Shown one piece after another: positions 37,006 to 64,000 of a stretch of DNA of 64,000 nucleotides; positions within the stretch are counted from its first letter, which is position 1; each line of letters begins with the position of its first letter. The notes beneath the pieces were generated by a model that saw nothing but the letters and a program-made list of their open reading frames with translations, was not told the origin of the DNA and did not search any database. Source of the stretch: Eubacteriales bacterium (lineage in GTDB: Bacteria; Bacillota; Clostridia; Oscillospirales; CAG-272); the NCBI GenBank assembly GCA_045540115.1, contig JAZQGR010000041.1, positions 36,638 to 100,637 of the forward strand, written 5' to 3'. The position numbers were made by a program, and so were the translations under genes.

Positions 37006-37009
37006 TTAA

Positions 37010-42760: not shown

Positions 42761-43062
42761 CGATATCCGTGATATCACGATACAAAAAATATAATTTTTT
42801 TCGTATAAATTTGATGAATTTTCAAATAATATCATTTTATATATTGAAAAAATGCAAAATGTGTGATATAATAAAATAAAAAAGTGAAAAAACACAAAAA
42901 TTATGAAGATATTTAACGGAAGATTATTGCGACGAAGCGTTAGATTGTACAATTTTTAAGCAATCGAATTGGTAGTTAGAAATATAATTATTGAATTTGT
43001 ATTAATTTTGAATCATTTGTCAAGCTGTTATTTAGTGAAAATACGTTTATGGGAGAATTATT

Positions 43063-44856
43063 ATGAAATCAGTAATAAAAGCCAATAAAGAAAATTTAAA
43101 ATACCTTTTTCGACATTTCTGGCCGCTTATTATTGTAGAATTGTTGTTTGCAATTACAAGTGGAGTTTCAGGAGCGATATCTTCATTCATGTCAAAAACA
43201 TTTATAAATAGTATAATTAATGACAAAAGCTTAAAAGTTGCAATGAATGTTGTTGTTGCGGTTGCGATTTTTGTGCTATTTAAAAATATAATTCAAAGTA
43301 TTGTTAAAGTTTATTCAAACTATGTGTTTTCTAAAGTAAGAGTGTTTTCAAAAACTATTTTTTTAGGATATACGAAACAACTAAATTTATCTTTTTTTGA
43401 TATACCAGAAAACAATAATTGTTTGTCACGTGCAGACCAATATTCCAATGTTGGCACAGAACAATTTATTTCATATGTTTTTTCAGTATTCGCCAATATA
43501 ATCGGGTGTATAAGTATATTGTTGATAATGTCCGATTTTGAGTGGTGGATTGTGTTTTTTTTACTGGTGTTGATGTCTTATAAATTAATAATTGAAAATT
43601 TTCTTTCAAAAAGAAATTTTAAATTTAAAAAGGAACGAGTTATACGCGAGCGACGGATCGGTTATTTTTCAAATTCATTCAAGAGTGCTTCGATATTAAC
43701 AGATTTGCATATATACGATGGCATTGATTTTTTTAAGCATCTATTTGAAAAACATTCGGAGGAAAATATCAATTTACAGACCAAACACAATTTTAAAACT
43801 GAATTGTTGTTTGCTTCAACCTACTTAACTGTTTTTATACAGAATATTGTTTTGTACTTGTATGTAGGTACTGCATTGCTGAATGGGTCCATAAATATTG
43901 GAGAATTTACGATGTTTTTTTCTGCTATCGGCTATTTAAATGCGTTACTGCTTAATTTTAAAAATTCCATATCAACACTATATCCAATTATCTTGGAATC
44001 TCAAAATTATTTAGATCTGATCAACATCGATTCAAAATATAAATATAATATACAAAAGTCGGGTCGAGTAAAGGTTGATAACATTAAGACAATCGAATTT
44101 AAACATATCTATTTTAGGTATCCGAAAAGGACTAACTTTGTTCTGAGCGACGTATCGTTTACTATAAATATGGGGGAGACAATATCTCTTGTAGGGATAA
44201 ATGGATGCGGCAAAACAACAATAATTAAATTATTGCTTAGGTTATATGAACCTACGGACGGACAAATCCTAATTAATGGTATCTCAATAGAAGAAATTGA
44301 TATCGAGAATTATTGGAAATTATGTAGCACTGTTTTTCAAGATTATTGTATTTATCCGATATCTGCATTTGAAAATATATCTTTGAATTGTGTTACCAAA
44401 AGCAACGCTGAATATGTCGCGGATTTAATGAAAAAAGTAGATATTGCGTATAGGTTTGATAAAGAACAAATGGGCATTTTCACTCCTCTTTCAAGAGATT
44501 TTGATGAAAATGGTACGGTTCTTTCAGGCGGCGAAAAACAAAAAATTGCTTTTGCAAGAGCAAGTTATAAGCCTCATTCTATACTGATATTAGACGAGCC
44601 GTCCAGTGCTTTGGATGCGCGAGCAGAGCAGGCATTATTTGATTATGTTGATTGTACTAAAAGCCACAATAAAATTGTAATTTTTGTTTCACACAGACTA
44701 TCAACATCAACCACTGCAGATAAAATTATATATATTGAGAATGGATGTGTATCCTGTTGTGGTTCCCATGACTACATGATGAACAATTGTAGTTCATATA
44801 AAGAGCTGTTTGAAATTCAATCTTCTAAATACGAGCAAACAAGTGTAAATAAATGA
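43063..44856 (+). CDS. ABC exporter, fused permease and ATPase (no C39 peptidase domain), RiPP cluster 2
   Basis: Six TM helices, then Walker A GINGCGKTT, signature LSGGEKQKIAFARA, Walker B ILILDEPSSALD. Confidence 0.8.
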   Translation: MKSVIKANKENLKYLFRHFWPLIIVELLFAITSGVSGAISSFMSKTFINSIINDKSLKVAMNVVVAVAIFVLFKNIIQSIVKVYSNYVFSKVRVFSKTIFLGYTKQLNLSFFDIPENNNCLSRADQYSNVGTEQFISYVFSVFANIIGCISILLIMSDFEWWIVFFLLVLMSYKLIIENFLSKRNFKFKKERVIRERRIGYFSNSFKSASILTDLHIYDGIDFFKHLFEKHSEENINLQTKHNFKTELLFASTYLTVFIQNIVLYLYVGTALLNGSINIGEFTMFFSAIGYLNALLLNFKNSISTLYPIILESQNYLDLINIDSKYKYNIQKSGRVKVDNIKTIEFKHIYFRYPKRTNFVLSDVSFTINMGETISLVGINGCGKTTIIKLLLRLYEPTDGQILINGISIEEIDIENYWKLCSTVFQDYCIYPISAFENISLNCVTKSNAEYVADLMKKVDIAYRFDKEQMGIFTPLSRDFDENGTVLSGGEKQKIAFARASYKPHSILILDEPSSALDARAEQALFDYVDCTKSHNKIVIFVSHRLSTSTTADKIIYIENGCVSCCGSHDYMMNNCSSYKELFEIQSSKYEQTSVNK

Positions 44857-45947
44857 TCTATGATACTATGAGGTGTAACATGTACGAAACAATTACTGCA
44901 AAGACTGTGTTAATAGAAATAACTAATACGTGCAATATGAGATGTACACATTGCTATAATAGATTCGATAGAGAATTACATCCCAAGCCATGCTATATGA
45001 CTTTGGAAAATGTAAAGCATATTATCGAAAAATGTATTTTATATAAATTAAATAAATTGTATATTTCTGGGGGTGAACCATTGTGTCATCCGGATATAAC
45101 TAGAATTATTGATTTGTGTGGTAATTATCCAGATATATATTTTACAATTACTACCAATGGGCTATTGCTTACCGAAGAAATCATCAATCAAATAGAACAA
45201 CATACCAATATATGTGTTCAAATCAGTGTCGATGGATTGTCTAAAGAAGTATATGAAGCGCAAAGGGGAATAGGTACATTTGAAAAATTTATATCTGTAT
45301 TGGATCTACTAATTTCCTCTAAAATCAAATATTTAACCGCACGAACTTGTGTAACAAAGCTAAATTACCGGGAAGTAAAATACATATATGAATTTTTGCT
45401 GAATCATAATATTATGCCTTCTTTTTTATTCGTAAATCAAATGGGAAATGCAGCCGAAAACTGGGATATATTATCCCTAAGTATGGCAAATCAGTTAAAA
45501 GTTCTTAATGATATCAATGTATTAAACAAAAAATATTCACAAACTATTACTCCGCCGGAACCAGTATCAACTTGCAATTTTACTGAAAATGTTGAAGTTA
45601 AATCTATGTTGATTAAATATGACGGAAATGTAGCCCCGTGTCAATATTTTTATTCAGAAAACATAGGTAATATTTTTGAAAAGGATGTTTCTGAAATACT
45701 TAATTATGAAAATTTAAAAAGCTATTATGAGTTAGCAAGATACAGAAAAGAGGTTCTTGAGTCAAGCAACACGTGTTCTAATTGTAGAATAAAAAGGATT
45801 TGTTCATATGGTTGCATAGGGCTTGCAAAAATTTGTGGGGATACTTTGGGAATGGATGGTCAGTGTTCTTATCGAACACACGTTGTGTCAATGTATTCGA
45901 ACGGAATAATTCCTATGCCGGGCAAAGATGTGGAGGATTTATTGTAA
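44853..45947 (+). CDS. Radical SAM / SPASM-domain peptide maturase
   Basis: ITNTCNMRCTHCYN (CxxxCxxC), ISGGEPL, C-terminal CSNCRIKRICSYGCIGLAKICGDTLGMDGQC. ATGA overlap with the ABC gene stop. Confidence 0.8.
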   Translation: MIYDTMRCNMYETITAKTVLIEITNTCNMRCTHCYNRFDRELHPKPCYMTLENVKHIIEKCILYKLNKLYISGGEPLCHPDITRIIDLCGNYPDIYFTITTNGLLLTEEIINQIEQHTNICVQISVDGLSKEVYEAQRGIGTFEKFISVLDLLISSKIKYLTARTCVTKLNYREVKYIYEFLLNHNIMPSFLFVNQMGNAAENWDILSLSMANQLKVLNDINVLNKKYSQTITPPEPVSTCNFTENVEVKSMLIKYDGNVAPCQYFYSENIGNIFEKDVSEILNYENLKSYYELARYRKEVLESSNTCSNCRIKRICSYGCIGLAKICGDTLGMDGQCSYRTHVVSMYSNGIIPMPGKDVEDLL

Positions 45948-46504
45948 TGAAAAAAATTTTTGCAAAATTCAAACAAGTAACGATCGCATGTGCAATATCT
46001 ATGATTATATATGTGTTAACTTATTGGATAACATCCGCTTTTATGAATGCGACATCCAAGCCGATGTATTTGCTTGCGTTAGGAATTTATTCGCTTATGT
46101 TCATGTGTGTATTAAATTTGATTTTGATTTATCGTGAATATATCAAAAACTCTGCTGGCGAAGAAAATGCAATACAAGATTTCAAAAATGGATATTGGGG
46201 ATTCAAAACAGATATAATCTTTTTATTTAGACGTGAATTATCCACTCTTATTACATTTGCATTAATAAATAGCACAAGTTGGATAATGATATCGATAGAT
46301 AAACTGATTTTTTCGAAAAGAACTATAACTGCGATTCTTTTGTTATATGCGCCGTTAAATATTGTAGGTATCACTTTGCCTACATGGGCTAATAGTATAT
46401 TGGGATATTTATTGGGAACCATTTTGTGTTTTGCGATATATCTTTTGGAGCTTGTGATCTTTCGCAAAAAATGGTATATACATTGGAATGAGACAAGGAG
46501 GTAA
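45948..46504 (+). CDS. Polytopic membrane protein (candidate immunity or export accessory)
   Basis: Start at MKKIFAKF; 4-5 TM helices; immediately precedes the precursor gene. Confidence 0.5.
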
Positions 46505-46506
46505 AA

Positions 46507-46767
46507 ATGTTTTATAAACCAAAATTGATAGAAATCTCTATTGAAGAACTTATCAACCATATTCGTATTAAAGCTGATTCTTATACTGGTCCGTCTTGTA
46601 CATGGTCATATGTTGAGGAATACGCATGTGGCGTTTGGGCCGATGGTAGTGATGGTGCCGGGGGCGGAGATTGGGGAAATATGTGTATTGAAATCGGTCC
46701 TTTATTTGGTTGCAATGAACATGAGGATTGGTATTGTAGCACACAAATAACGCCTATCGTTAGATAA
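46507..46767 (+). CDS. Cys-containing RiPP precursor peptide 2 (86 aa)
   Basis: Perfect AGGAGG RBS. Leader-like N-terminus (MFYKPKLIEISIEELINHIRIKADSY), then a core with five Cys and a Gly-rich stretch (GSDGAGGGDWGN). Confidence 0.55.
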   Translation: MFYKPKLIEISIEELINHIRIKADSYTGPSCTWSYVEEYACGVWADGSDGAGGGDWGNMCIEIGPLFGCNEHEDWYCSTQITPIVR

Positions 46768-46839
46768 AAAATTATTACAAGCTCCCTCGAATTAGATTTT
46801 AAAATTATAAGTTGGGTTACTTTAAGCAAGGAGAAATTC

Positions 46840-47103
46840 ATGAAATATATAATAAATCAAGACTTCGATAAGATAGATGATGAGAATAAGACTATTTTGT
46901 TCACAGGTACTGTTGAAAATGTGTACATACTAAACGAAATAGAGACACAGATTTGGAAATTGTTTGATCGCCCCTGCTTTATCACTGAAGCACATGAAAA
47001 GTTTGATACAGTTACTAGTCAAGTAAAGGTTAAGAAAGAAGATTTTTTTGATTTTGTTGAGCAATTAATTATTATGAGGATCTTAATTTTATCTAATGAT
47101 TAG
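46840..47103 (+). CDS. PqqD-like RRE protein
   Basis: ILNEIETQIWKLFDRPCFITEAHEKFD...EDFFDFVEQLI. AAGGAGAAATTC RBS. Confidence 0.55.
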   Translation: MKYIINQDFDKIDDENKTILFTGTVENVYILNEIETQIWKLFDRPCFITEAHEKFDTVTSQVKVKKEDFFDFVEQLIIMRILILSND

Positions 47104-47893
47104 GATATCTTTCCAATTCTCTAATTGTTCCTTTATTGTGGATTCTCCAGCTATTATTGAATCACATATATTTGAAAAGTTTCTTTTGTTTGCTGAATTT
47201 ATAAAAGCAATTGACCATGAAAGTCAAAGTATAGTGATTTGCGTAAACGAAAATGATATAAACATTTATAACAATAAAACAAGAAGAAATCACATCATTA
47301 GATGTGATTCTCATTACGATGTATTTAAAAAGATTATTAATTTGATACGCGAGAATACGATAGTCAACGGTGATGTTTGTGTATTACATGCGTCTTTTAT
47401 AAAAATGTTTAATAACGGTATTCTATTATTAGGGGAGAGTGGTGCTGGCAAGTCGACTTTATCAGCATATCTTCATCTGATGACAGGATGTGAATGTTAT
47501 ACAGATGATATAGCATTTATGAATTATAATACGAAGGTAACTCAAGGCGTGTCGCAATATATTAATTTGAGGTCGTCTTCACTGGATTTGTTACCCGCAA
47601 ACCATAATGCGGTTTATGATGATTTTATTGAACGATATAAAATCATCATAAACAATCGTTCTAAAGAAAAGGTGGATTATATCGTTATGTTGAATCGGCA
47701 AAACGATTCAGAGGTTGGAATAAAACCAATTGAAAACCCTATAAAAGTGTTGACACAAAATATGTATTTACCATATTCATTAAAGAATAATATTATTGCT
47801 GCCAATAAATTAGCAGCTCAAAGCAACGTATATGAAATGTGTTATTCAGATTTGTTTTCTGCATATAATCTTTTGAGCGAATTAGAAGGTTGA
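47096..47893 (+). CDS. HPr-kinase-like P-loop protein
   Basis: LLLGESGAGKSTLSAYL Walker A; overlaps the PqqD gene stop. Confidence 0.65.
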   Translation: MIRISFQFSNCSFIVDSPAIIESHIFEKFLLFAEFIKAIDHESQSIVICVNENDINIYNNKTRRNHIIRCDSHYDVFKKIINLIRENTIVNGDVCVLHASFIKMFNNGILLLGESGAGKSTLSAYLHLMTGCECYTDDIAFMNYNTKVTQGVSQYINLRSSSLDLLPANHNAVYDDFIERYKIIINNRSKEKVDYIVMLNRQNDSEVGIKPIENPIKVLTQNMYLPYSLKNNIIAANKLAAQSNVYEMCYSDLFSAYNLLSELEG

Positions 47894-48390
47894 TGCACAT
47901 GTTATTTTTATGGATGCTCTTGTTGATTATTATTGTATTTTAAAAATACCTTTATTTGATTATTAAGAGATTTCATCTTCTAAGAAAAATAGGTAAACTA
48001 ATCTTGAATTCTGCGCCAAAATCAATCAGCAAAGCAGATGACGCAACACTTACAGCGCTCTATAACAACGACGATTTAATTCCCGTTGTCAAAGTGTGTG
48101 GATTAAAATGGTTTGTTGAAAATGTTTTTGAGCAAGAGGAGAGATAAGATTGGTAATGAAATACATAAGGTAAATGTTAAATGCCCACAAGCAGAAAATT
48201 ATTTGCAAAATCTTCTTTTCTTTGTGCAGATCAAGGAATATAAGCTATTGATCAAATAAATGTTTTTATGACAAAAGAAAAAAAGAGTTATTGCGGTGTT
48301 GTGAATAACAACTCTTTTTACGCAACAAAACAATGTTTACAAATTGAATTAAAGTGGTAACTACGCTCTTTGTAATTCCACATATTTCCT

Positions 48391-53331: not shown

Positions 53332-55572
53332 TTATTCAAAATAACTCTTGTCTTTAATTGCCTTGACGAATCTCTCCACTTCGTCAATGCTTTCGATCAC
53401 GGGATATTTGCGAAGTGTGTGCTTTACATTACCTGCATAGCTGCCATAGGTTGCTCTGCAATCCAAAATTGCAAGAATGCCTGTGTCCGTTTCACAACGC
53501 ACCAAACGTCCGACGCCTTGGCGAAGCTTTATCAGCATCTCGGGAACTGCATATTTATGGATGAATTCTTCCACGCTTGCACTATTTGCTTTTTTCTCGT
53601 TCATCGTTGCTGTGCGTAAGGGAAAAGGCAAACGAACAATAATCACGGAAGATAGGCAGTCGCCAACACAATCTACGCCCTCCCACATACTTCCTGATGC
53701 GAACAGAACTCCGTTCTTGCTCTTCTTGAACTCTGAAATAGCTGTTCTATCACTTTTTGTCATACGGATCACGTTGTATTTGCTAAGACGCTTTCTGGTC
53801 AGTTCATAAACCTTAGAGAGGAGCTTATATGAAGTAAAAAGGATTGCGGTGTGTCCGTTTGTAGCATTCACAAGGTCGACAATTCTGTCTGCTACAGCCT
53901 TGACATAGAAATCGTTATCATTGTCAGGAGCCGGAAGATCGCCGGGAAGATATAACCTCGTGTGATTTTTATAGTCAAAAGGGGATGGATTGGAGTATTC
54001 AATCATTTCATCATTGGCAATGCGATCCAATCCGTTTTCTTGCTTAAAAAAATCGAAGTTCACTCCATCGCTCATCGTTCCTGATGTGAATACGTGGCTG
54101 CGCTTCAGGCGCCATACATTCTTTCTCAAGGAATTACCGATATTTTTTGAGCAACAGCACAATGTAATCTCTCCGTTGTCTTCAGTTTCAAGCCATACGT
54201 TCAGATCGCTGTCCTCAATAAAACAGCGTAGGCAGTTGCGGATTCTGTTTCCGTTAACTTCGCTCATTCCTTTGATGTCCTTCTTGATCTCTTCAAGATC
54301 TGTAATGGCATCAAGTAACGCATCAATGAAGCTCTTGCACTCAATATCAAGGGTAATGATGTTATTCTCACCTGAGTCATCCTCGACGGGAATCATCGAG
54401 CGGAGTCTGAAAAACAGTTCTTTATTCAGTCTTTTTATTTCCGTTCTTATCTGACGGTACAACGGCAGCATTTCCGTGCTGATACAGTGCGTGCTTGTCC
54501 AGTTGAGATATTTTTTAATTGTTCCTTCGCTGAATCTTTCTCCGAACACCGACTGAGCAGCTTCCTTCAGTTTGTGGGCTTCATCGACAATGACAAAGGA
54601 GCTTTCGCGAAGTAACCCGCCTTGTCTTGCGGATGTTAAATAGAGGTTGTGGTTAGTAACCTGAAAATCAAGGGGGACGGATGCAGACATCGCATTTCTT
54701 GTAAATAACTTATACCTGCAGTTTGCTGAATGATTACATTCAGTGCAATGACCTTTGACACAGATCTTACTTTTGATGCGCCCCTGAATTGCGATCTTAT
54801 CGAGATCAAAGGCACGGTCTTCGAAGTGCGATTCATCAAAATAATAGAGGAGTTCGCCGTGTTTTTGAGGATTCGCTCTGAGTTTATTCACATAGTCATC
54901 AAATCGAAAAGGACAAAAGTAATGTTCTTTACCTTTTCGAAGCACCGCCGTTATCGGTCTTTTCGCAATATGGCTCTCCAGGAGTATTCGGGAAAGACGA
55001 GGAATCTCTTTATCAATTAATGCATTTTGCAACTCAATGCTTGATGTTGAGACAGTTACAGGCTCATTAGAACCTGTTTGCATTTTTGCGCAAAAACCGG
55101 CAACGAGATAAGCCAGACTTTTTCCGGTTCCAACCTCTGCTTCGCAGATAGCTGCTTTCTTATGAAGAAGTCCGTTATACATTTTCTTGCAGAGTTGAAT
55201 CTGCTCTTCTCTTACGGCAAAACCATGTTGGGGAAGCACTTCGCGGAATATCTTTTCAATAAGATCAACGGGCGGCTTTTGATATCCGTAAACAAAACGC
55301 TTATCGCCGTTGTACTTGATTGAATACAGAATCTGAGGAATCATTTCTTCGTATTCATAGGATGGAATTTCACCGTGTTTTGTAGAACAAATTTCAGAAG
55401 ATAATCCGGTTTTAATGTCCAATGCTATGTAAACGATTTCATTTCTCATCGGTGCATGATAAATAAGGTATCTGTTCTCAAAAGTAAAATCGTAAACGGC
55501 ATTGGGGTATGCCATTCGTTCGCTCATATAATAGTCTAGAGCGTCTTCGTTGTTTCTTGTAATTTCGTACAT
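53332..55572 (-). CDS. DinG/Rad3-like superfamily-2 helicase (DEAH box, Fe-S Cys cluster)
   Basis: Walker A AEVGTGKSLAYL, DEAH box VIVDEAHKL, Cys cluster CPF...C..C...C between the motifs. Start at MYEIT (GGAAAGGAAACC RBS) rather than the track's longer start. Confidence 0.75.
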   Translation of the reverse strand: MYEITRNNEDALDYYMSERMAYPNAVYDFTFENRYLIYHAPMRNEIVYIALDIKTGLSSEICSTKHGEIPSYEYEEMIPQILYSIKYNGDKRFVYGYQKPPVDLIEKIFREVLPQHGFAVREEQIQLCKKMYNGLLHKKAAICEAEVGTGKSLAYLVAGFCAKMQTGSNEPVTVSTSSIELQNALIDKEIPRLSRILLESHIAKRPITAVLRKGKEHYFCPFRFDDYVNKLRANPQKHGELLYYFDESHFEDRAFDLDKIAIQGRIKSKICVKGHCTECNHSANCRYKLFTRNAMSASVPLDFQVTNHNLYLTSARQGGLLRESSFVIVDEAHKLKEAAQSVFGERFSEGTIKKYLNWTSTHCISTEMLPLYRQIRTEIKRLNKELFFRLRSMIPVEDDSGENNIITLDIECKSFIDALLDAITDLEEIKKDIKGMSEVNGNRIRNCLRCFIEDSDLNVWLETEDNGEITLCCCSKNIGNSLRKNVWRLKRSHVFTSGTMSDGVNFDFFKQENGLDRIANDEMIEYSNPSPFDYKNHTRLYLPGDLPAPDNDNDFYVKAVADRIVDLVNATNGHTAILFTSYKLLSKVYELTRKRLSKYNVIRMTKSDRTAISEFKKSKNGVLFASGSMWEGVDCVGDCLSSVIIVRLPFPLRTATMNEKKANSASVEEFIHKYAVPEMLIKLRQGVGRLVRCETDTGILAILDCRATYGSYAGNVKHTLRKYPVIESIDEVERFVKAIKDKSYFE

Positions 55573-56133
55573 TTTGGTTTCCTTTCCGTTTGGCAGAAGA
55601 ATGGTATGCAGAAGAAGCAGTAACTTCTTCTGCACAGTAGTTCCGCTGCCAAACATAAAAAATCATGTTCAGAATTGGAGGATCATCGTATTTATTACAG
55701 CCCCCGACGATCCGCAAGGTGCTAAGAGGCTGTCAATTTTTCCTCTGCACAATTTGTAGGGGAGGTTCGGAGTACCTTGCAGCATGCATGTCATGACTTC
55801 TTTCATGACAACAAGGATCATATATGGCGTAGAGGCATTTTCAGCACGAGACGACCATATCACGCCCACCGGCGAGCCGCTGTTAACGGAAGTCTCATTA
55901 TTCACCACTCGGGGTTATGGCCTACGAAGCAATGCTGTTTACTGCTCCGCCCTCCCAAAGTTTATCGCTCGCTCCCGTAAGAGGTCCTGGCGCCTTTGTT
56001 TGGCGGCTTTCCTTTCGGCCCGAATGGGTTCTTCCTCGGAATCCCATCTATTCAATTGTCAAACGAGGCCACAATTTCTTTTTTGCCCCTCACTCTGTAT
56101 TCCACAATTATTTTCGATTTAACAACCAAAAGA

Positions 56134-56688
56134 TCAAAAAAATTTTTTAAGCTCATTCAGAATAGTACGTTTGCGTTTGTGTACCGCCTGTTGTGTTATC
56201 TTTAGCTGTGCTGCGTATTCGCTCTCCGTTAAAGGCTTGTCCTGCAAAAACAAAGCGCATATTAATGCGTATTCGTCCTCCGTAAGTGAGTTAAGTGCTC
56301 TGCGGAGTATTTCCAAATCAATCTGATGGAACACCTCTTCTTCAACATTAACATCCTCATCCGCAAGTGATTCTCCGGGGTATTCTTCATCTTCGCATTC
56401 CGCGCTACTCATAGATATTACGGCGTACGGATTTGCTTTGCTATTATCTGCTATGTACTGTTCACGGCGTTCATAGGTGCGAAACGCTTTCATATTATCG
56501 GTATGAACTTCTATGTTGATTTCATCCTCTTCGCCTTCGGCGTTAACAAGCTTCATGAAGCGGCGATCCCTACCTTGAGGCGACATCAAAAATTTGTATG
56601 CTGCTCTGCCTTCTAACTTTGCATATCTGCGGGATCCGTCCGCAGATGTATGTTTTCCGTTTTTATCTTCAATGTAATAAGTTTTCAT
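56134..56688 (-). CDS. Sigma-70 region-4 domain protein (typical of Clostridial integrative elements)
   Basis: C-terminal region-4 HTH (LTEDEYALICALFLQDKPLTESEYAAQLKITQQAVHKRKRTILNELKK). AAAGGAG RBS. Confidence 0.7.
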   Translation of the reverse strand: MKTYYIEDKNGKHTSADGSRRYAKLEGRAAYKFLMSPQGRDRRFMKLVNAEGEEDEINIEVHTDNMKAFRTYERREQYIADNSKANPYAVISMSSAECEDEEYPGESLADEDVNVEEEVFHQIDLEILRRALNSLTEDEYALICALFLQDKPLTESEYAAQLKITQQAVHKRKRTILNELKKFF

Positions 56689-56785
56689 TATTGTGATCTC
56701 CTTTCGATTTTTTGAATATGATTGGTTCTAATTCAAAAATCGGAGATCACGGATACTTAGCTACGTAGCAAAGCCAACTCATAAA

Positions 56786-56876
56786 CATAAAAAATCCTTT
56801 CTGCTTTTTAGACAGAAAGGATATAGCAAAAAAGGCATGACAACACAGCTTAAAAGCTGTTTGTCATGCCCTGCCG
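56786..56876 (-). terminator. Two tandem intrinsic terminators ending the cluster-3 operon
   Basis: On the minus strand: GGCATGACAAACAGCTTTTAAGCTGTGTTGTCATGCC followed by TTTTTTGC, and ATCCTTTCTGTCTAAAAAGCAGAAAGGAT followed by TTTTTTATG. Confidence 0.6.
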
Positions 56877-57069
56877 AACCAGAAACCATTCTCGACTTAC
56901 ACTGCGGTTCAAAGCTACCATCTAGTGGACAGATAATATGTGCGAATACGAGTAATAATATATAAAAGTTACTCGATTGTAGCTACTTATGCTTCGAAAA
57001 AATAAAATATTTTATAATATTATTCTAGATTTACAATATTCTCCACAAACTCAACAGTAATATTATTAA

Positions 57070-57366
57070 TTATTGTTGCCAAATAATTGGCTCCTTATTT
57101 TTCCCATTCATTGTTTGTGTAGTTGCTTCGATATCTTTCAAAACTTGTAAAATTTTGTTTGTCGTATTCATTTCACCAATCAACAGCTTAGAGTCTGGAA
57201 TTTCACATTCGAATTCATCCTCGACACCAACAATGATTTTAATGAAGGTAATAGAATCCATGCCAAGTTCAGATAGATCATCATCAAGCTTATCCTCGGT
57301 TACTTCTGCATTCTCGATGTTTGCGTTTAATATTTCTATGACTTTTCCAACAGTTATTTCTTTCAT
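57070..57366 (-). CDS. Acyl/peptidyl carrier protein-like (phosphopantetheine-attachment motif)
   Basis: LGMDSITFIKII matches the PP-binding DSL/GxDS motif. 98 aa, acidic. Confidence 0.6.
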   Translation of the reverse strand: MKEITVGKVIEILNANIENAEVTEDKLDDDLSELGMDSITFIKIIVGVEDEFECEIPDSKLLIGEMNTTNKILQVLKDIEATTQTMNGKNKEPIIWQQ

Positions 57367-58259
57367 TCAGATACTCCCATAAAAATACGCTTATTGATTG
57401 CAATTTTCTCATGATCTTTTTCGGTTAAATCGTCTTTTATCAAATCATAAAGATTACTTACTTCCAAGCGAGTATTGAAATCACATTTCCATTCTTTTCG
57501 TTCTTTAGCGCACAAACCGTAACAATTAAGTAAAGCTTCACCCTCTGGAGTTCTGAAAGCTTCTATGTATTGCTTAAGAATCTCATCATCAAACACCTGA
57601 CCGGTGTAATATAGAATATAGAACATGTAAGGAATGATCTCATATTCAGCACTCATTGCGTAAAGCTTGTCTAATGGAATTGTATCAAGATTGTTCTTTA
57701 GCAAATAATATACATCTTTGAACATATCATATTTGATACTCTTTCGAGTGGCAAGAAGGAAAATAGAGTTCATATCTTTGTAGTGGTGTAAAATGAGCTG
57801 AACCATTGCTTTTATCGGTGGCAATGTTTTAACCTTTACGCCGTAGATCGCCATTTCTATTGTGTCAGAAAGAAATTCTTCTATGTCAATTCGCTTGCCT
57901 TCGTATTCGCCCCAGAACAAGTCGAAATTTATATCGATAGTGATTTTTCCAAAATGTTCCGTTAATTTGCTCCAAGCAGAAGATTGATGTGACAGAATTA
58001 GTGTTAAGATTTGATTATACCGCCCCGTGGTTTCTTTGGCAAACCCGGAATGAATTAAATCGTTCTCGATATCTCTCATTTTTTTGCGAGCGATTAAAAA
58101 ATCTATATCAGAAGAACGACGTAGTCCTTCTTTACCATATATTAATTTAGTGAGCGGTTCACCCTTAATAATAGTATAACAAAGTAGATTCGTATTCAAT
58201 GTTTGATAAAAATACCTTGAAGCTATTTTGTATAATATAGAGTCTATTCCTGTACTCAT
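57363..58259 (-). CDS. Nucleotidyltransferase-fold protein (NTP_transf_5-like)
   Basis: GLRRSSDIDFLI fits the minimal nucleotidyltransferase hG[GS]...DhD motif. ATGA overlap with the ACP gene. Confidence 0.5.
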   Translation of the reverse strand: MSTGIDSILYKIASRYFYQTLNTNLLCYTIIKGEPLTKLIYGKEGLRRSSDIDFLIARKKMRDIENDLIHSGFAKETTGRYNQILTLILSHQSSAWSKLTEHFGKITIDINFDLFWGEYEGKRIDIEEFLSDTIEMAIYGVKVKTLPPIKAMVQLILHHYKDMNSIFLLATRKSIKYDMFKDVYYLLKNNLDTIPLDKLYAMSAEYEIIPYMFYILYYTGQVFDDEILKQYIEAFRTPEGEALLNCYGLCAKERKEWKCDFNTRLEVSNLYDLIKDDLTEKDHEKIAINKRIFMGVSE

Positions 58260-58272
58260 TTCAACCTACTTT

Positions 58273-60018
58273 TCACAAATCAACTTCCAACTGTTCAATT
58301 TGTGTATTATAAAGTTTCGCATATGCACCATTCATATGCATTAATTCCTTATGGGTTCCTTCCTCCACTATTTTTCCATTTTCCATATACAGAATCCTAT
58401 CAGCTTTGATGGCAGTAGAAAGTCTATGTGTAATAAAAATAGTAGTTTTGTTTCCAGAAACTTCGCATATTAGATCGTTTAACTCTTTTTCCGCTATAGG
58501 ATCAAGAGATGCATTGGCTTCATCAAAAATTAAAATATCACCTGTTTGGTAAAGCAGTCTTGCTATTCCTATCCGCTGCGTTTCGCCACCCGAAAAAACA
58601 AGACCTTCGTCATCATAATCTCTGTTAACTTGAGATTTTATACTGCATGAGTACTTATCCATATTAACCATTTGTAAAACGGAATTAATGTCTTTATCCA
58701 AATAGTTGTTGCTCATTGCAATGTTTTCGCCTAAAGGAATGGAATACAAGGATAAATTTTGAAAACAACACGCAAAACAGGCTCTTATCGAAGATACATT
58801 CATTACTTCATAAGGTACATCATCCATTAGTATTTCACCAGCAGTTGGCTCATAAAATCTTAGAAGCAACTTGAGTAAGGTGCTTTTTCCAGCACCATTG
58901 CGCCCTACGATAGCAACCTTTTCTCCTCTCTTTAGCTTGAAATTGATTTTTTTCAAAGTAAGATCTTTGTTTTGTGGATAAGAAAAATTTACATTTCTGA
59001 ATTCACAGATGTGGTTAAAATGTGCATGAATTCCGATGTGATAATTTTCCATTAAATCATTATCTAAAAAACTATAGATTTTATCAGCATACAATTTATG
59101 GGCTTTAAAATCTGTAATTGTTGAAACAACACTTTTTATACTATTTCTAAAGCTATTGCAAGCATTGAACATTGAAGCAAAAGATGCTATTGTATAGTAG
59201 CCAAATATTATCCTAATTCCTAAATAAAGCCACGTAACTAAAGTAAATAAAACAACGATTATTGATTGAATATTTTCTGCAAGCATGTTTTTTGAAGAAT
59301 ACTTTTTTATAAGAGCAATATTTCTATCTGTACAAGTACGCAATTGGTTCTTTAAGACATCACCGATCCCACTACATTTGGCATCATATATAAATGACTT
59401 GTCATACATAATTCTGCCGATATAACTTTCCTGACGATCCAAGGAAGCCTTCTGATTTCTATACTCATAATCATTTTTTACTTTTATTAATTGTGGAATC
59501 AAACCTATTACTGCACTAAAAACTGCAAAAACAATCAAATATGGGTCTGTGGTTACTATAAGTGCTATAACTGTTCCAATTGAAGCAAATAGACTCATGA
59601 TATTAACGCATGATTTCCAAATAGCAATACACCTAATATCAATATCTTGAGATGCTAACACAAAATGGTCGTAGAAATCAGGGTTGTCAAAGTTTCTTAC
59701 TTCGGATCGTTTTACAGCCTCAATAATATCTAGTTTAAATATCATTGATATTCTTTTTTCTCGTGTAGGCATGTATATGTGCGATGCATATCCATCCCAG
59801 ATTAGATTCACCAAATTAAGGATAAACATTGCCAACAAAATAAGTAGCGCCTTAATAACACTTTTATCATCAGCGATGCTTTCCAAAAATAATTGTAGAA
59901 AAAATATATCAATAAGTGGATTGATAATTCCAACAGGAATCGCAATTAAAGACACAAACATATACTGTTTGTCAATTTTCAATAATTGCTTGATCATCCT
60001 CAGAATAGAATTTTTCAT
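58273..60018 (-). CDS. ABC exporter, fused permease and ATPase, RiPP cluster 3
   Basis: TM domain, then Walker A GRNGAGKSTLL, signature FSGGETQRIGIARLL, Walker B ILIFDEANASLD. Confidence 0.8.
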   Translation of the reverse strand: MKNSILRMIKQLLKIDKQYMFVSLIAIPVGIINPLIDIFFLQLFLESIADDKSVIKALLILLAMFILNLVNLIWDGYASHIYMPTREKRISMIFKLDIIEAVKRSEVRNFDNPDFYDHFVLASQDIDIRCIAIWKSCVNIMSLFASIGTVIALIVTTDPYLIVFAVFSAVIGLIPQLIKVKNDYEYRNQKASLDRQESYIGRIMYDKSFIYDAKCSGIGDVLKNQLRTCTDRNIALIKKYSSKNMLAENIQSIIVVLFTLVTWLYLGIRIIFGYYTIASFASMFNACNSFRNSIKSVVSTITDFKAHKLYADKIYSFLDNDLMENYHIGIHAHFNHICEFRNVNFSYPQNKDLTLKKINFKLKRGEKVAIVGRNGAGKSTLLKLLLRFYEPTAGEILMDDVPYEVMNVSSIRACFACCFQNLSLYSIPLGENIAMSNNYLDKDINSVLQMVNMDKYSCSIKSQVNRDYDDEGLVFSGGETQRIGIARLLYQTGDILIFDEANASLDPIAEKELNDLICEVSGNKTTIFITHRLSTAIKADRILYMENGKIVEEGTHKELMHMNGAYAKLYNTQIEQLEVDL

Positions 60019-60019
60019 G

Positions 60020-60325
60020 CTATATCAATACCTTTGCAAGTATGTTTTCCTTTAAAAAGGGCGGATCTGGTAGTACTACATTGTCACCTTTTGTTATAAC
60101 CATATCAGTGTCCATTTCTATGATGCGGTGTGCAATAATCTTGTTGTCATCTTTATATAGCACAATGTCGCCCACACAATACTCATTACTACTGAGCTTT
60201 ATAGCAGACAAAATAGAGGCCTCGTTCAAAGCAGGTTGCATGCTATTACCATATAATTTAAAGGTGAATATCTTTCCGCTCGGCATCGACTTGATTATAT
60301 TATAAAACAAATCGGCTATTTTCAT
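60020..60325 (-). CDS. S24/S26-family serine peptidase (signal-peptidase-I/LexA-like), candidate leader peptidase
   Basis: YGNSMQPAL (Ser nucleophile box, compare GDSMxPTL) and GDIVLY; 101 aa; 2 nt from the ABC gene start. Confidence 0.55.
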   Translation of the reverse strand: MKIADLFYNIIKSMPSGKIFTFKLYGNSMQPALNEASILSAIKLSSNEYCVGDIVLYKDDNKIIAHRIIEMDTDMVITKGDNVVLPDPPFLKENILAKVLI

Positions 60326-61368
60326 TTGTTAACAACCATATCATCAAACATTTTTTTTATTGATTTAGCTTTTAAACAACATTGTTTTTGATCATATTCC
60401 TTTCGTGCTGGACAGTATTCACACAATAATTTTAAATTACAGGAATAGCATTCGGTATTCTCGTCAATTTTCTTTGAAATTCTATCTGCTATTTTTCCAC
60501 ACCAATCAATAGGCAGATCTTGGACATTCATCAATGTAATATCAGAAATGCAAGTTTTAATATTTCCCATCGGATCGCACGCTATGCCAACTTTTCCGGC
60601 TCTACATTGAAACTCATTATGTTTATACAAGGAGAGATTATTGTCCTCAACGATCTTGTACAACTTTTCTATATGATTAAAAAGGCCGTTTTTCATTTTA
60701 ATGAATTCAAGTAATTCATTCTCATCAAGTATTAATGAAGAATTATGCCCATTAAACTCCACATCATATCCATATCTGTAATCACAAGCCAACTCTTTTT
60801 TTACAAATTGTTCAATCATATCAATTTCCCGAAAATTGGTTTTCATTACTGGAGTTTTTAATGTGATAGGAATCCCTAACGCCTTTAATTTAATCACATT
60901 TTCTATCAGCAAATTGAAGGATCCTTTCAATTGCGTTATATACTCATGGGATTTCGAGTGGCTTCCATATATTGATGTTTCAATGCGATTAGGAGGGTGC
61001 TTTTTAAATTCATTCAAGTGCTTTTCGTTGAGAAGTAAGAGGTTAGAAAAGATTATGATTTTTGCTCCTTTATTCCAAAGATATGAATAAAGTTCGAGAA
61101 AATATGGAACCACCAACGGTTCTCCTCCCGATATGACAAAAAGAAATATGCCATTGGAAATAAAAATATCACAAGCACGCTTCCACTGCTCTAGACCTAG
61201 TTCATTTTCAACACATTCTTGATTAATATAACAATGTGTACATTTCAAATTGCATTTATAGGTTAATTCCAAATGGATGCTTAACGGTCGGTGTACCATA
61301 TTGAATATATCGTCATAGTTACCCCGAGCAAATTTTTCTACAACATGTATATTGTCTTCATTTCTCAT
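60322..61368 (-). CDS. Radical SAM / SPASM-domain peptide maturase
   Basis: LTYKCNLKCTHCYIN (CxxxCxxC), ISGGEPL, C-terminal Cys cluster (CYSCNLKLLCEYCPARKEYDQKQCC). Confidence 0.8.
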   Translation of the reverse strand: MRNEDNIHVVEKFARGNYDDIFNMVHRPLSIHLELTYKCNLKCTHCYINQECVENELGLEQWKRACDIFISNGIFLFVISGGEPLVVPYFLELYSYLWNKGAKIIIFSNLLLLNEKHLNEFKKHPPNRIETSIYGSHSKSHEYITQLKGSFNLLIENVIKLKALGIPITLKTPVMKTNFREIDMIEQFVKKELACDYRYGYDVEFNGHNSSLILDENELLEFIKMKNGLFNHIEKLYKIVEDNNLSLYKHNEFQCRAGKVGIACDPMGNIKTCISDITLMNVQDLPIDWCGKIADRISKKIDENTECYSCNLKLLCEYCPARKEYDQKQCCLKAKSIKKMFDDMVVNK

Positions 61369-61655
61369 TTCTGTTTTTCGATAACCTCATTTTCACGCAA
61401 AGATGATATTACATCATCGATATCATTTTTTATTTGCTCAAATGGAATTTGGAAATACTTTCTTTGAAATGATTCTTGAATATCCTCAATAGTAAAGCCT
61501 TGACGAATAAGTTGATATATTTCTATAGCTGAAGTGTTTAATACCAGTACGTTATTGTCATTTCTATTATTTGAAACAAGTGCGAGGTTAGTGTCATCCC
61601 CGTATTCAATTATACCAGATTTGATTTTGTATTTTGTCTTATCATTAGCACTCAT
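61365..61655 (-). CDS. PqqD-like RRE protein
   Basis: The 96-aa product is small and acidic (LVLNTSAIEIYQLIRQGFTIEDIQESFQRKY...DIDDVISSLRENEVI). It sits between the kinase and the rSAM gene, as in clusters 1 and 2. Confidence 0.5.
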   Translation of the reverse strand: MSANDKTKYKIKSGIIEYGDDTNLALVSNNRNDNNVLVLNTSAIEIYQLIRQGFTIEDIQESFQRKYFQIPFEQIKNDIDDVISSLRENEVIEKQK

Positions 61656-61670
61656 AATGCTTCCCCCTTT

Positions 61671-62510
61671 TTAATTAACTTCTTTATTAAGGTAATCAAC
61701 AATAGAACTGTCAGGTTTAAATTCTAGAATATAGCTTTGTACTTGACTAGAAAATTTTTGAGCGTTAAGTATAGTTTTTAACATTAATTTTTTATCCCAT
61801 ACAGGGTAATATATTTGTTTGGATAGCAAGGAAAACATTTCTTCAGATGAAATGCGATTAATATGGTTTAATTGATCTTTGCTATGACGCAAATAAATAA
61901 CGTTTTTTGCTGTAGAGGTTAAATTATTAATTGTGTTATTACTGCTTAGCCAATATCCAGCATTAATACTAGAATTTAAAGAGACAATTATTCTTTCATC
62001 ACTTAATATTAAAAAACCATTTTTTTGTAATATTGAACTTAATGTGCTTTTACCAGCTCCGCTTTGCCCAAAATATAGAAATGTTTTATTGAGATTAGAT
62101 GCGGCACCACCGTGCAAGACCAATTTGTTTTTTCTGGATAATATATCTGTCCATAGAAAGTCTTCCAAAGGAAGTGGCAGTTCAATCGGAATATGCGTAT
62201 CTTTATAATAAATTTGACATGTTTTTTTGGAAGGAATGTAATTTGCAATTATTCTGCTGTCAACTCCCAGTGTGATATAATACTCATTTTTGTGTTGATT
62301 CTTATAAACAAAAATATTATCATTAGAATACACTAAATTTGACCGTTCAACTTGTTCCCAACAAAAAAAAACATTTTCAGCGAGACTGATTCTCAAATCT
62401 ACGCATTGAGTATCGCAGGTAAATTCCTCCAGTAATGTTTCATGACCCAAAGTAATCGGATATACATATTGACATTTGACCGTTGAAATTTTAACGATTG
62501 TTGATTTCAA
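61671..62510 (-). CDS. HPr-kinase-like P-loop protein
   Basis: LYFGQSGAGKSTLSSIL Walker A. Confidence 0.65.
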   Translation of the reverse strand: MKSTIVKISTVKCQYVYPITLGHETLLEEFTCDTQCVDLRISLAENVFFCWEQVERSNLVYSNDNIFVYKNQHKNEYYITLGVDSRIIANYIPSKKTCQIYYKDTHIPIELPLPLEDFLWTDILSRKNKLVLHGGAASNLNKTFLYFGQSGAGKSTLSSILQKNGFLILSDERIIVSLNSSINAGYWLSSNNTINNLTSTAKNVIYLRHSKDQLNHINRISSEEMFSLLSKQIYYPVWDKKLMLKTILNAQKFSSQVQSYILEFKPDSSIVDYLNKEVN

Positions 62511-62594
62511 AAATATTTCATTCCTTTCTCAAAGTCAGTATAAAAAACGTGTGATCACTCTAACCGTAAAATAATAATCGAAAATTCAGGTTAT

Positions 62595-62647
62595 AGAGAC
62601 TGTATTGTATTTATAACCATATTATTTTAAAACACAATACAGTCTCT
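62595..62647 (-). terminator. Strong hairpin (14-bp perfect stem) between the precursor and biosynthetic genes; candidate attenuator or partial terminator
   Basis: AGAGACTGTATTGT...ACAATACAGTCTCT begins 8 nt downstream of the precursor stop on the minus strand and is followed by an A/T-rich tract. Confidence 0.45.
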
Positions 62648-62654
62648 CCCTCAT

Positions 62655-62792
62655 TTAGCTTTTACAAGGTTTTTGCGTAGTTTCGAGCTGATTGCTAGAA
62701 CAACCTTGCACGGATTGATTATTTCTACATGCTCCAATAGCACATAGTAAATCTTCCAGATTCATGATTGTAACTGTCGGTCGAATATACAT
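62655..62792 (-). CDS. Cys-rich RiPP precursor peptide 3 (45 aa; not in the ORF track)
   Basis: Hand-translated MYIRPTVTIMNLEDLLCAIGACRNNQSVQGCSSNQLETTQKPCKS, with a strong GGAAGGAGGTTAGAAC RBS and four Cys; directly upstream of the kinase/PqqD/rSAM operon. Confidence 0.6.
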   Translation of the reverse strand: MYIRPTVTIMNLEDLLCAIGACRNNQSVQGCSSNQLETTQKPCKS

Positions 62793-63662
62793 GTTCTAAC
62801 CTCCTTCCGTAATAGTAATTGATGGACATTTCTAGCGTCCATTTAAAATCATTCCAAAACTTCAAATTGCAAAGGAACTTGGCTTGAGTTTCGATAAAAA
62901 GCATAATTGCTTATACAAATAATATTACAATACAGTTAATATGAAACCCACTATAAATAAAAGCATAGGCTGCACCAAGACTGGCAATAAAAAGTTTCAA
63001 AAAAATCATTGACTTTTATATTTCCAAACATATCCGAGCATGAATAAATTGTTTTTCAGTACAGTCATTTTTCTCCCTTTTATTCAAATGAGTTTAATAA
63101 AAATTATCAATGTAAGCTGTTTCGTATTTATTATAACATGCGCTTCTGTATTTTGCAATATTTAAAATGATGGATATTGAAATTTCGTTAAATTTAGACA
63201 TATAAGTCTCGATTTTTTATAGTTTTCACATCATATTCTTTGTTAATTTGACGAAAATGCACTCTCCGGGCGTTTCATTTTGGGGCATAACTCTAATACT
63301 TAAGGATACGAACATATGCGCTTTAGATTTGCCTGTAGCCATACATCTGTTACTTGTTCCCCGTATACTAGTTTTGATATATGCCTTTGTCTGGGAGTGA
63401 GATAGCATGGGCACAGCAAATAACGAAACGAGGTCATAATATGAATAATCTCGTGGCGTTGCCACTCTCACTCAAAGCGATTCCCTATATGTTTCTCATC
63501 GAGCGTTCCTGGCCACGCGGCTCCTTCAGTCTGCTTCACAGACAGCTTCATCACGGAAAAAACCTTTGTCACAAAACGTTCTGCACTGGCTCTTATTTGC
63601 TTTCTTCTCGCCAGTAAACCTCTTTCCAACCGCACGAATATCGCGTGATTTTCGTTGCACAA

Positions 63663-63708
63663 TAAAAACAGATCGTAGCCGATCACCTCAGCTACGATCT
63701 GTTTTTAC
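63663..63708. terminator. Bidirectional intrinsic terminator
   Basis: AAAAACAGATCGTAGCCGATCACCTCAGCTACGATCTGTTTTT. Confidence 0.55.
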
Positions 63709-63842
63709 TTATAAAATTCCATTAACGCAGTACAAACAAGCTACATATACCGCCTTCCGACCAAGCAGCCGCTTTAATATACGAAGATATTTGCTCGGCC
63801 CTCAAGGTAGTACAACTAGGTCGTTTCCAACTTTTTTTCATA

Positions 63843-64000
63843 TTAAGCTCCTTTCTTATTTATAATTTTATTAAGTAAATTTATAATGTTTGCAATGTAT
63901 GTTCTATTCAAGCTATATAAAATAGTTTTGCCCTCATTGCGTGTTTTAACCAACCCCGCTTTTGTCATAATATTAATATGGTGATATGCTGTAGATCCGG
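63843..64000 (-). CDS. ArsR/SmtB-family transcriptional regulator, C-terminal part (N-terminus beyond the window end)
   Basis: Minus-strand translation gives ...AYHHINIMTKAGLVKTRNEGKTILYSLNRTYIANIINLLNKIINKKGA*, matching the ArsR recognition-helix/wing motif (VSHHLKxLxxAGLVxxRxEGRxxxYSL). Confidence 0.55.
   Translation of the reverse strand, partial: GSTAYHHINIMTKAGLVKTRNEGKTILYSLNRTYIANIINLLNKIINKKGA

Follow-up and report, generated by a model that had tools for sequence, protein, structure and literature searches.

The question raised by this locus is what kind of peptide is made by a minus-strand operon in a 64,000-nucleotide stretch of the genome of an Eubacteriales bacterium (assembly GCA_045540115.1, contig JAZQGR010000041.1, positions 36,638 to 100,637; this whole stretch is called the window below). 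There, a 45-amino-acid, cysteine-rich open reading frame (ORF) precedes a set of genes of the kind involved in making ribosomally synthesized peptides that are post-translationally modified (RiPPs). A first-pass annotation had read the locus as a cluster for such a peptide, and this reading is essentially right: the operon is an intact RiPP operon. Its product is probably a peptide that is cross-linked by a radical S-adenosylmethionine (SAM) enzyme, phosphorylated on the C-terminal Ser45, decorated through the action of a nucleotidyltransferase and an acyl-carrier protein (ACP), released from its leader by an S26-type peptidase and exported by an ATP-binding cassette (ABC) transporter.

The precursor gene is followed on the minus strand by seven genes that are tightly packed or overlapping, which gives eight in all; the first-pass annotation had claimed an operon of nine. 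All eight ORFs are unbroken. The domain calls come from Pfam and NCBIfam profile scans, judged against the curated cutoffs. In the direction of transcription the locus consists of the following elements:

62800..62808, minus strand, ribosome-binding site GGAAGGAGG, read from the sequence, 7 nt 5' of the precursor ATG
62655..62792, minus strand, precursor gene, first gene of the operon, 45 amino acids with four Cys, MYIRPTVTIMNLEDLLCAIGACRNNQSVQGCSSNQLETTQKPCKS
62595..62647, minus strand, long hairpin, separated by 7 nt from the precursor stop, whose 14 perfect pairs extend to 18
61671..62510, minus strand, HprK-superfamily P-loop protein, 279 amino acids, TTG start, candidate peptide kinase (profile matches below cutoff)
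61365..61655, minus strand, stand-alone PqqD-like leader-recognition protein (RiPP recognition element, RRE), 96 amino acids (PF05402, 37.6 bits, cutoff 23.4)
60322..61368, minus strand, radical SAM/SPASM peptide maturase, 348 amino acids (PF04055, 64.6 bits)
60020..60325, minus strand, SipW/Sec11-type signal peptidase I homologue, 101 amino acids, candidate leader peptidase (TIGR02228, 56.6 bits, cutoff 51.85)
58273..60018, minus strand, ABC exporter with fused permease and ATPase, 581 amino acids (ABC_tran; NHLM_micro_ABC1)
57363..58259, minus strand, PF14907 (NTP_transf_5) nucleotidyltransferase-fold protein, 298 amino acids, metal motif D51-I-D53 (56.8 bits, cutoff 31.2)
57070..57366, minus strand, ACP (PP-binding PF00550), 98 amino acids, phosphopantetheine serine in G-M-D-S (40.4 bits, cutoff 20.8)
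56786..56876, minus strand, two tandem intrinsic terminators at the operon end, each a hairpin followed by a T-run

Profile matches were obtained for the domains that the first-pass annotation had named (PF14907, PF00550, PqqD, radical SAM, S24/S26 and ABC). The tandem terminators it had described are present as well; the two hairpins, both with T-runs, fold jointly at -42.6 kcal/mol (z = -7.0). No lasso cyclase (asparagine-synthetase-like C protein) and no B2 transglutaminase-like protease is encoded between 56.9 and 62.8 kb, where the seven ORFs all belong to other families. A comparison of the operon DNA with plasmids returned no further members of the family.

The small ORF with its four Cys and the strong ribosome-binding site both lie where they had been reported. 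The ORF had also been described as hidden, and it was indeed missing from the first ORF track, but the exact protein is already called as a gene in a public NCBI record (a 118,525-bp contig). The core cysteines at positions 17, 22, 31 and 43 are all invariant in the family, and so is the C-terminal Cys-Lys-Ser: Ser45, the last residue, is kept in four of four members, and the Cys-Lys that precedes it does not change in any of them while the neighbouring positions vary. The leader contains the motif Y2-x-x-P5-x-V7, in which Y2, P5 and V/I7 are invariant.

Four metagenome contigs (L001-L004) carry, in the same order, the small ORF and the genes for the kinase-like protein, PqqD, the radical SAM enzyme, the S26-like peptidase, the ABC protein, the nucleotidyltransferase and the ACP. 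Two short contigs, L010 and L011, contain kinase relatives at 44% identity and also carry the peptide. A Cys-rich small ORF at the same position in homologous operons, on which the first-pass annotation had made its reading depend, is therefore seen in three independent loci (L001/L003, L010 and L011), each time directly upstream of the kinase-like gene. The homologues of the precursor are:

L001, MYIEPIITVIKMEDLLCAIGACRNNESVQGCSSGQLETTQKPCKS
L010, MYIKPVIVVMKIEDLLCAIGTCRNNQSVDGCSSDHIENTYKKCKS
L011, truncated where its contig ends, …SSGQLETTQRPCKS

The peptide is 67-80% identical across the loci and 80% identical between the window and L001, whereas the seven enzymes of these two loci share only 39-59% identity. 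Over the whole precursor 17 codons differ synonymously only between the window and L001 and nine differ non-synonymously; within core residues 17-45 the corresponding counts are 15 and two. Such a pattern is the signature of strong purifying selection on a gene that is translated. The selection is strongest in the core, and the whole Cys-rich core of 25-29 residues is conserved. Because the ORF occupies the same position in other loci and changes mostly synonymously, it is regarded as a genuine precursor. A profile built from the three peptides found nothing further in a collection of 5.8 billion proteins or in metagenome contigs, and the search of the protein collection gave only three precursors, two radical SAM enzymes above 50% identity and three kinases; the family is a rare one. 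Judged by sequence, the operon combines the hallmarks of a radical-SAM-dependent RiPP cluster, namely a conserved adjacent precursor, an enzyme with a CX3CX2C motif and a SPASM domain, and a PqqD-like RRE.

The hairpin behind the precursor stop had been interpreted as an attenuator. The 14-bp stem is present and the 160-nt region around it has a minimum free energy of -37.4 kcal/mol (z = -3.7), with none of 200 shuffled sequences folding as well. However, no U-tract stands behind it, and because of this the hairpin is not a canonical intrinsic terminator. A long hairpin also follows the precursor stop in L001, L010, L011 and a Clostridium perfringens plasmid described below; the sequences of these hairpins are unrelated, so it is the structure that is conserved and not the sequence. 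The presence of an equivalent in every homologous locus fits, without proving it, a role in setting the ratio of precursor to enzymes, and the hairpin is probably a partial barrier to transcription or an element that stabilises the precursor transcript at its 3' end. Comparison of the region with Rfam gave no family, only chance microRNA-like matches to hairpins.

The best profile match of the kinase-like protein is TIGR04352 (HprK-related kinase A) with E = 1.5e-7, followed by HprK-related kinase B, both far below cutoff, so that the earlier HprK-like call is weak when based on the window protein alone; it gains support from the relatives of this protein. An exhaustive profile search returned 15,257 representative relatives at E <= 1e-3, only five of them at E <= 1e-30. 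When 43 relatives and the window protein were scanned, 40 of the 44 matched HprK_rel_B, 31 HprK_rel_A, 25 ScmC and 11 the true HPr kinase model, all below cutoff. His133, the P-loop G-K154-S-T and Asp171 are invariant across the three paralogues of the window and the relatives, while position 172 is either Glu or Asp: it is Glu in the window protein (D171-E172) and Asp in the paralogues of two other clusters of the window (A and B, see below) and in the C. perfringens kinase. The AlphaFold 2 model, calculated from a five-sequence alignment, is of low confidence (predicted local distance difference test score, pLDDT, 52.6), and its Foldseek matches, phosphoenolpyruvate carboxykinase first and then HprK/P, are suggestive only. 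A profile search with the kinase alignment gave matches at the level of the P-loop only among PDB sequences (HPr kinase at E = 0.04) and no further family members among genome contigs; the alignment of four kinases was too divergent to serve a pattern search. The protein thus appears to be a divergent member of the HprK superfamily, from a branch associated with peptide-modification systems.

The radical SAM enzyme contains the CX3CX2C motif and a complete seven-Cys C-terminal motif, which aligns with homologues annotated by Pfam as SPASM proteins, and has no fused RRE. Its AlphaFold 2 model has a pLDDT of 82 and resembles most closely the folds of SkfB, SuiB, BlsE, PqqE and CteB. None of the cutoffs of the named thioether-forming families (AlbA, SkfB, CteB/SCIFF, PapB and RumMC) is reached by this enzyme: it scores 76.6 against a cutoff of 850 for AlbA, 47 against 300 for SkfB and 35.8 against 340 for PapB, and the scores for PqqE (60.8 against 381) and MftC (61.2 against 265) are also far from theirs. 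A single close relative, with 59% identity, was found among 5.8 billion protein clusters. The nearest remote homologues, at ~27-31% identity, are located in ScmC-containing cassettes.

The peptidase had been assigned to the S24/S26 group. The S26 side of this assignment is confirmed, as the protein is of the Ser/His SipW/Sec11 (S26B) type, but it is not of the LexA-like S24 type. The catalytic positions Ser28 (GNSM), His66 (AHR) and Asp81 (KGDN) were aligned to the motifs of SEC11A/C, and these motifs are kept in L001 and in the C. perfringens homologue. By inspection, the protein has no N-terminal membrane anchor, with only 27 residues of mixed polarity before Ser28, and the TIGR02228 match begins at position 20 of the 158 profile positions. 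Signal-peptidase-type enzymes prefer small residues at -1 and -3. Precursors across the superfamily have AXA-like junctions of small residues just before the first core Cys, namely A18-I19-G20 in the window and AAA, ASA, AHA, AGS or AAS in other candidate precursors. These junctions support, as an inference only, the S26-type enzyme as a leader peptidase that would cut after Gly20. The exporter matches NHLM_micro_ABC1, a model of peptidase-containing bacteriocin exporters, only from profile position 138, past the peptidase region, and for this reason it is considered to lack a C39 peptidase domain.

The presence of a nucleotidyltransferase and an ACP had been called unusual for a radical-SAM RiPP cluster, which is right and understated: the two proteins make up two-thirds of a conserved nucleotidyltransferase-ACP-FkbH cassette. 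In polyketide pathways, FkbH enzymes take a glyceryl unit from 1,3-bisphosphoglycerate and transfer it to an ACP. The ACP gene of L001 stands directly before one for a 515-residue FkbH-domain protein, and the TIGR01686 scores of FkbH proteins located directly after the ACP in relatives, 238 bits in L001 and 218 bits, are both above the cutoff of 146.65. The nucleotidyltransferase of the window is 59% identical to that of L001, 49% to a protein of a C. perfringens plasmid and 49-82% to the proteins of 80 metagenome loci; the G-M-D-S motif of the ACP is kept in homologues. Nucleotidylation by the PF14907 protein, as proposed in the first-pass annotation, is only a guess.

The plasmid gene was found by tblastn with the window nucleotidyltransferase and lies on a 56-kb mobilizable C. 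perfringens plasmid, represented by 13 records. The genes there are arranged in the order radical SAM, signal-peptidase-I-like, radical SAM::PqqD fusion, radical SAM/SPASM, small ORF, HprK-like, two ABC genes, nucleotidyltransferase, a VOC protein, ACP and FkbH. The small ORF, MSKKKYVKPTLKTVKVDKAVMVAASRSGMGNCKITFLS, has a YxxPxL leader and a C-terminal Ser (…CKITFLS), the latter shared by three of three members of its precursor family. The HprK-like protein matches Hpr_kinase_C with 34.5 bits, above the Pfam cutoff. Compared with the family of the window and L001, the plasmid proteins are 45-49% (nucleotidyltransferase), 50-53% (ACP) and 39% (FkbH) identical, against 23-27% for the radical SAM enzymes and ~33% over roughly 90 residues for the kinase-like protein; as the former values exceed the latter, the cassette is the best-conserved part of these clusters. 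A distant nucleotidyltransferase match on a Bacillus thuringiensis plasmid (H19) has an uninformative gene context.

Scanning metagenome contigs with the nucleotidyltransferase alignment revealed at least 153 loci, many of them from human and animal gut, of which 80 (L094-L173, at 49-82% identity) were fetched. Among the 31 loci whose contigs extend 8 kb or more upstream of the nucleotidyltransferase, 28 have a radical SAM gene, 27 an HprK-like gene, 29 an ABC exporter, 19 PqqD and 13 an S26-like peptidase. Among the 48 with at least 2.6 kb downstream, an ACP is present in 45, FkbH in 43 and a VOC protein in 16. In these ~16 cassettes the VOC/glyoxalase-family gene, similar to methylmalonyl-CoA epimerase, is placed between the nucleotidyltransferase and the ACP, a hint at further isomerisation or processing of the unit carried by the ACP. 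Several clusters, including L092 (the C. perfringens plasmid NZ_CP148674.1, 15145..16131), L001 (8427..8999) and several metagenome loci, contain after FkbH a conserved protein of ~330 residues, with only a weak match to C39-like peptidases (E = 0.017), and it may be a further member of the cassette. Directly upstream of the precursor of L001, positions 94..306 encode the C-terminal third of a nucleotidyltransferase that is 69-77% identical to the cluster's own, which suggests a tandem or rearranged second cluster.

The front end of the operon is very similar to that of firmicute lasso-peptide clusters, in which the gene order is C-A-K-B1-B2-(N)-D (PMC5067487, PMC8498205). Like those of paeninodin (PadeA/K/B1) and pseudomycoidin (PsmA/K/N), it has the precursor, a putative HprK-type kinase and a PqqD-like RRE in the order A-K-B1, a C-terminal Ser in the precursor, a nucleotidyltransferase-fold gene beside an ABC exporter and, in the putative kinase, a probable counterpart of the His/Lys/Asp-Asp(Glu) motif. 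The leader motif Y-x-x-P-x-[VI] has the sequence and spacing of the YxxPxL box, which spans positions -17 to -12 of lasso leaders (PMC10368454). The HprK-type lasso kinases phosphorylate the C-terminal Ser of the precursor and contain a His-Lys-Asp-Asp motif, with the metal site of PsmK formed by D158/D159, and in pseudomycoidin PsmN, a nucleotidyltransferase-family protein described as uncharacterised, adds a hexose to the Ser phosphate (PMC9266682, PMC6993621). His133, Lys154 and D171-E172 of the window kinase appear to correspond to this motif and to D158/D159; PadeK, PsmK and PsmN were likened to the window proteins by their published descriptions. The window operon is nevertheless not a lasso cluster, because the lasso cyclase and the B2 cysteine protease are absent. 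Their places are taken by a radical SAM/SPASM enzyme together with an enzyme resembling signal peptidase, and the nucleotidyltransferase is accompanied by an ACP and, in relatives, by FkbH.

Sactipeptides (subtilosin/AlbA, SKF/SkfB) and ranthipeptides (the products of CteB and PapB) share with the window operon the Cys-rich core, the seven-Cys SPASM motif, PqqD-type recognition and an ABC exporter, and SkfB and CteB are among the best structural matches of its maturase. Unlike these systems, the window maturase is below all family cutoffs and its RRE is a separate protein. To our knowledge, the sacti- and ranthipeptide clusters described so far do not include a kinase, a nucleotidyltransferase, an ACP or an S26-type peptidase. 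The SynChlorMet (SCM) cassettes ScmC-ScmD-ScmE/F, which are defined computationally and uncharacterised, show the same triad, in which a P-loop protein related to HprK is combined with a PqqD-like protein and one or more radical SAM/SPASM enzymes. Relatives of the window kinase-like protein match ScmC. The window proteins themselves remain distant from these models (15.5 against a cutoff of 100 for ScmD and 54.2 against 400 for ScmE), and the kinase-like protein does not match the ScmC model at E <= 0.1. We know of no description of SCM cassettes with a nucleotidyltransferase-ACP-FkbH cassette or an S26 peptidase. Glyceryl loading by FkbH and ACP is known from the biosynthesis of methoxymalonyl-ACP and of tetronate polyketides. 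The relatives of the window operon resemble these systems in having FkbH directly after the ACP, but the context is that of a RiPP, with no polyketide synthase, and the window ACP has no FkbH.

The operon is the third RiPP cluster of the window. Two further clusters with radical SAM, PqqD-like and HprK-like genes, referred to as A and B, precede it and are separated from each other and from it by mobile-element and other genes:

37010..41231, minus strand, cluster A
37798..39348, MutS/KamC-like ATPase of cluster A
41049..41231, minus strand, precursor of cluster A, MKTKYEKHQITVIDSKALNDIKALARSGDCRSLEFPGCTSGGVCMSGPAAGCVANVAQNI
41382..42537, IS3-type transposase
43063..47893, plus strand, cluster B, also with an ABC exporter and a membrane protein
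46507..46767, plus strand, precursor of cluster B, 86 amino acids
48899..52988, two large serine recombinases
53332..55656, DinG/YoaA-like helicase
56134..56688, small sigma-70-like protein

Clusters A and B share with the precursor at 62 kb a leader of the form [YF]-x-x-[PH]-x-[ILV] and have no nucleotidyltransferase. One metagenome locus, L097, contains homologues of cluster B (72-90% identity) followed by the nucleotidyltransferase-ACP-FkbH cassette. The first 32 kb of the window (1..32000) have a G+C content of 45-50%, against 31-37% in the regions of the RiPP clusters (32000..48000 and 56000..64000). This drop, together with the interspersed serine recombinases and transposase, points to the three clusters being located on a horizontally acquired island, in what is a gut Clostridia genome of the Oscillospirales type.

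Several other genes of these surroundings deserve mention. At the edge of the low-G+C region, 34451..36451 on the minus strand encodes a 666-residue protein with an HD-type motif (…LLHDAGHLPYSH…DSDRLDY…), which has no NCBIfam match at E <= 1e-5 and may be a phosphohydrolase, possibly related to defence. Positions 31307..32695 hold a flotillin-like gene, which shares 100% identity with a gene of an Eubacteriales metagenome-assembled genome and 90-94% with genes of such assemblies of gut Oscillospiraceae and Acutalibacteraceae. Upstream of the precursor, positions 62911..63075 were considered as N-terminal ABC fragments and rejected, having no significant similarity to ABC genes. A 39-residue ORF, MKKSWKRPSCTTLRAEQISSYIKAAAWSEGGICSLFVLR, at 63722..63841 on the minus strand has a good ribosome-binding site, a leader-like start W-x-x-P, two Cys and a strong terminator of its own at ~63660..63700. 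It directly follows the end of a small regulator-like (helix-turn-helix-like) gene (63843..63968, minus strand), which runs off the window. The ORF matches no Pfam or NCBIfam model; it may encode a further RiPP precursor or else a peptide used in signalling.

In the pathway proposed for the 45-residue precursor, the stand-alone PqqD protein would bind the leader through Y-x-x-P-x-[VI] and present the peptide to the enzymes. The radical SAM/SPASM enzyme would then cross-link the core, with thioether bridges from some of the four invariant Cys as the likeliest products. The HprK-like protein would phosphorylate a serine of the precursor; the analogous lasso kinases PadeK and PsmK make Ser45 the favoured site. 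The PF14907 enzyme and the ACP would add a further group, phosphate-linked or glycerate-derived; in most relatives FkbH would load the ACP with a glyceryl unit. The anchor-less signal-peptidase-like enzyme would remove the leader at A18-I19-G20, the ABC transporter would export the product, and the hairpin would keep the precursor transcript in excess over those of the enzymes.

Several observations weigh against this pathway. The chemistry of the operon enzymes is read from their sequences, and the thioether product is a guess from the Cys-rich core, made for an enzyme that is far below the cutoff of every named maturase family. The kinase call depends on a match that centres on the P-loop and stays under every curated cutoff, together with the low-confidence model. 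A recognisable S26-like gene occurs in only 13 of the 31 related loci with sufficient upstream sequence. FkbH has no homologue anywhere in the window and no remnant downstream of the ACP, although L001, the C. perfringens plasmid and as many as 43 of the 48 metagenome loci have it, so that the ACP-dependent step may depend on a gene located elsewhere or be inactive. Clusters A and B have HprK-like genes and precursors that lack a C-terminal Ser. Finally, the idea that the cassette marks peptides with a C-terminal Ser arose when both families then known had precursors ending in Ser; as a general rule it was rejected, since the last residue of candidate precursors with the leader motif from the 80 metagenome loci may be S, C, I, Y, D, G, A, R or W, and it is kept as a lead specific to the family.

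These observations lead to other explanations of the same operon. One, less likely but to be taken seriously, is that the HprK-like protein does not phosphorylate Ser45 and acts instead on an internal Ser or Thr (for example S27, S32, S33, T38 or T39), or that, like ScmC, it serves PqqD and the radical SAM enzyme as an ATP-dependent partner or as a scaffold, with the cassette acting elsewhere, on the new N-terminus or a side chain. The varied C-terminal residues at the other cassette-bearing loci and the kinase-like genes of clusters A and B would be explained in this way, as would the ScmC matches of 25 of the 44 kinase-like proteins, beside those to HprK_rel_A and HprK_rel_B, and the location of the nearest remote radical SAM homologues in ScmC-containing cassettes. 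There is also a precedent in the lasso kinase BsfK, which phosphorylates the internal Ser3 (PMC10368454). However, the invariance of Ser45 and of its preceding Cys-Lys among variable neighbours favours phosphorylation at the C-terminus, and the retention of the catalytic His, Lys and Asp argues against a purely structural role. It is improbable that the operon is a decaying or crippled copy on the low-G+C island, which has lost FkbH and yields no fully tailored product or none at all. Such decay would agree with the absence of a gene present in most relatives, with the 31-37% G+C region in a 45-50% G+C genome beside serine recombinases and a transposase, and with the nucleotidyltransferase fragment of L001, which indicates that rearrangement occurs in the family. 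It agrees poorly with eight intact ORFs that are tightly spaced or overlapping, with a strong ribosome-binding site and terminators, with the clear purifying selection on the precursor, and with the five of 48 related loci that also lack FkbH, as versions of the cluster without this gene evidently recur.

Two further explanations concern the peptide itself. That it gives rise to a cofactor or signal used inside the cell, processed like pyrroloquinoline quinone or mycofactocin, rather than to an exported bioactive peptide, is very unlikely. A radical SAM enzyme that is short and has no RRE fused to it, a stand-alone PqqD and a peptidase would suit such a role, and mycofactocin and PqqE maturase models are among the matches, with PqqE also among the best folds; yet the MftC and PqqE scores given above are far below their cutoffs, a dedicated ABC exporter is found in 29 of 31 relatives, and conservation extends over the entire core, more than the terminal dipeptide. 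Least likely of all, and scarcely credible, is that the 45-residue ORF arose by chance and the enzymes have a different substrate, such as the product of the 39-residue ORF. Small ORFs are frequent in AT-rich DNA, and that other Cys-containing one lies only ~0.9 kb upstream. But the comparison with the three other loci, where position and sequence are conserved with mostly synonymous change, contradicts a chance origin; the 39-residue ORF has a terminator of its own, and the upstream region of L001 differs, being occupied by the nucleotidyltransferase fragment.

A full-text search of a literature library found no paper on the combination of radical SAM, PqqD, HprK-like and soluble signal peptidase proteins with the nucleotidyltransferase-ACP-FkbH set, which does not in itself prove novelty. 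The gene set recurs in the metagenome loci described above and on the mobilizable plasmid of a cultured C. perfringens. It is possible, if rather doubtful, that these clusters represent an undescribed RiPP class common in gut Firmicutes, in which a Cys-rich peptide cross-linked by a radical SAM enzyme is decorated with a phosphate-linked or glycerate-derived group by a portable cassette of kinase, PF14907 protein and FkbH-loaded ACP, and in which an anchor-less homologue of signal peptidase I serves as a cytoplasmic leader peptidase. If so, FkbH/ACP glyceryl chemistry would for the first time be connected with ribosomal peptides, and there would be a pointer to what the PsmN-type 'nucleotidyltransferases' of lasso clusters do natively. 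Narrow-spectrum antibiotics and new enzyme chemistry are currently being obtained from the radical-SAM RiPPs of gut Clostridia. The locus raises the questions of what the PF14907 'nucleotidyltransferase' of lasso and radical-SAM clusters transfers, whether glyceryl-ACP units enter ribosomal peptides, and whether a signal-peptidase fold can act as a cytoplasmic leader peptidase. For the evolution of these pathways it would mean that a lasso-type front end, made of leader motif, kinase and RRE, can be combined with a wholly different core-modifying enzyme.

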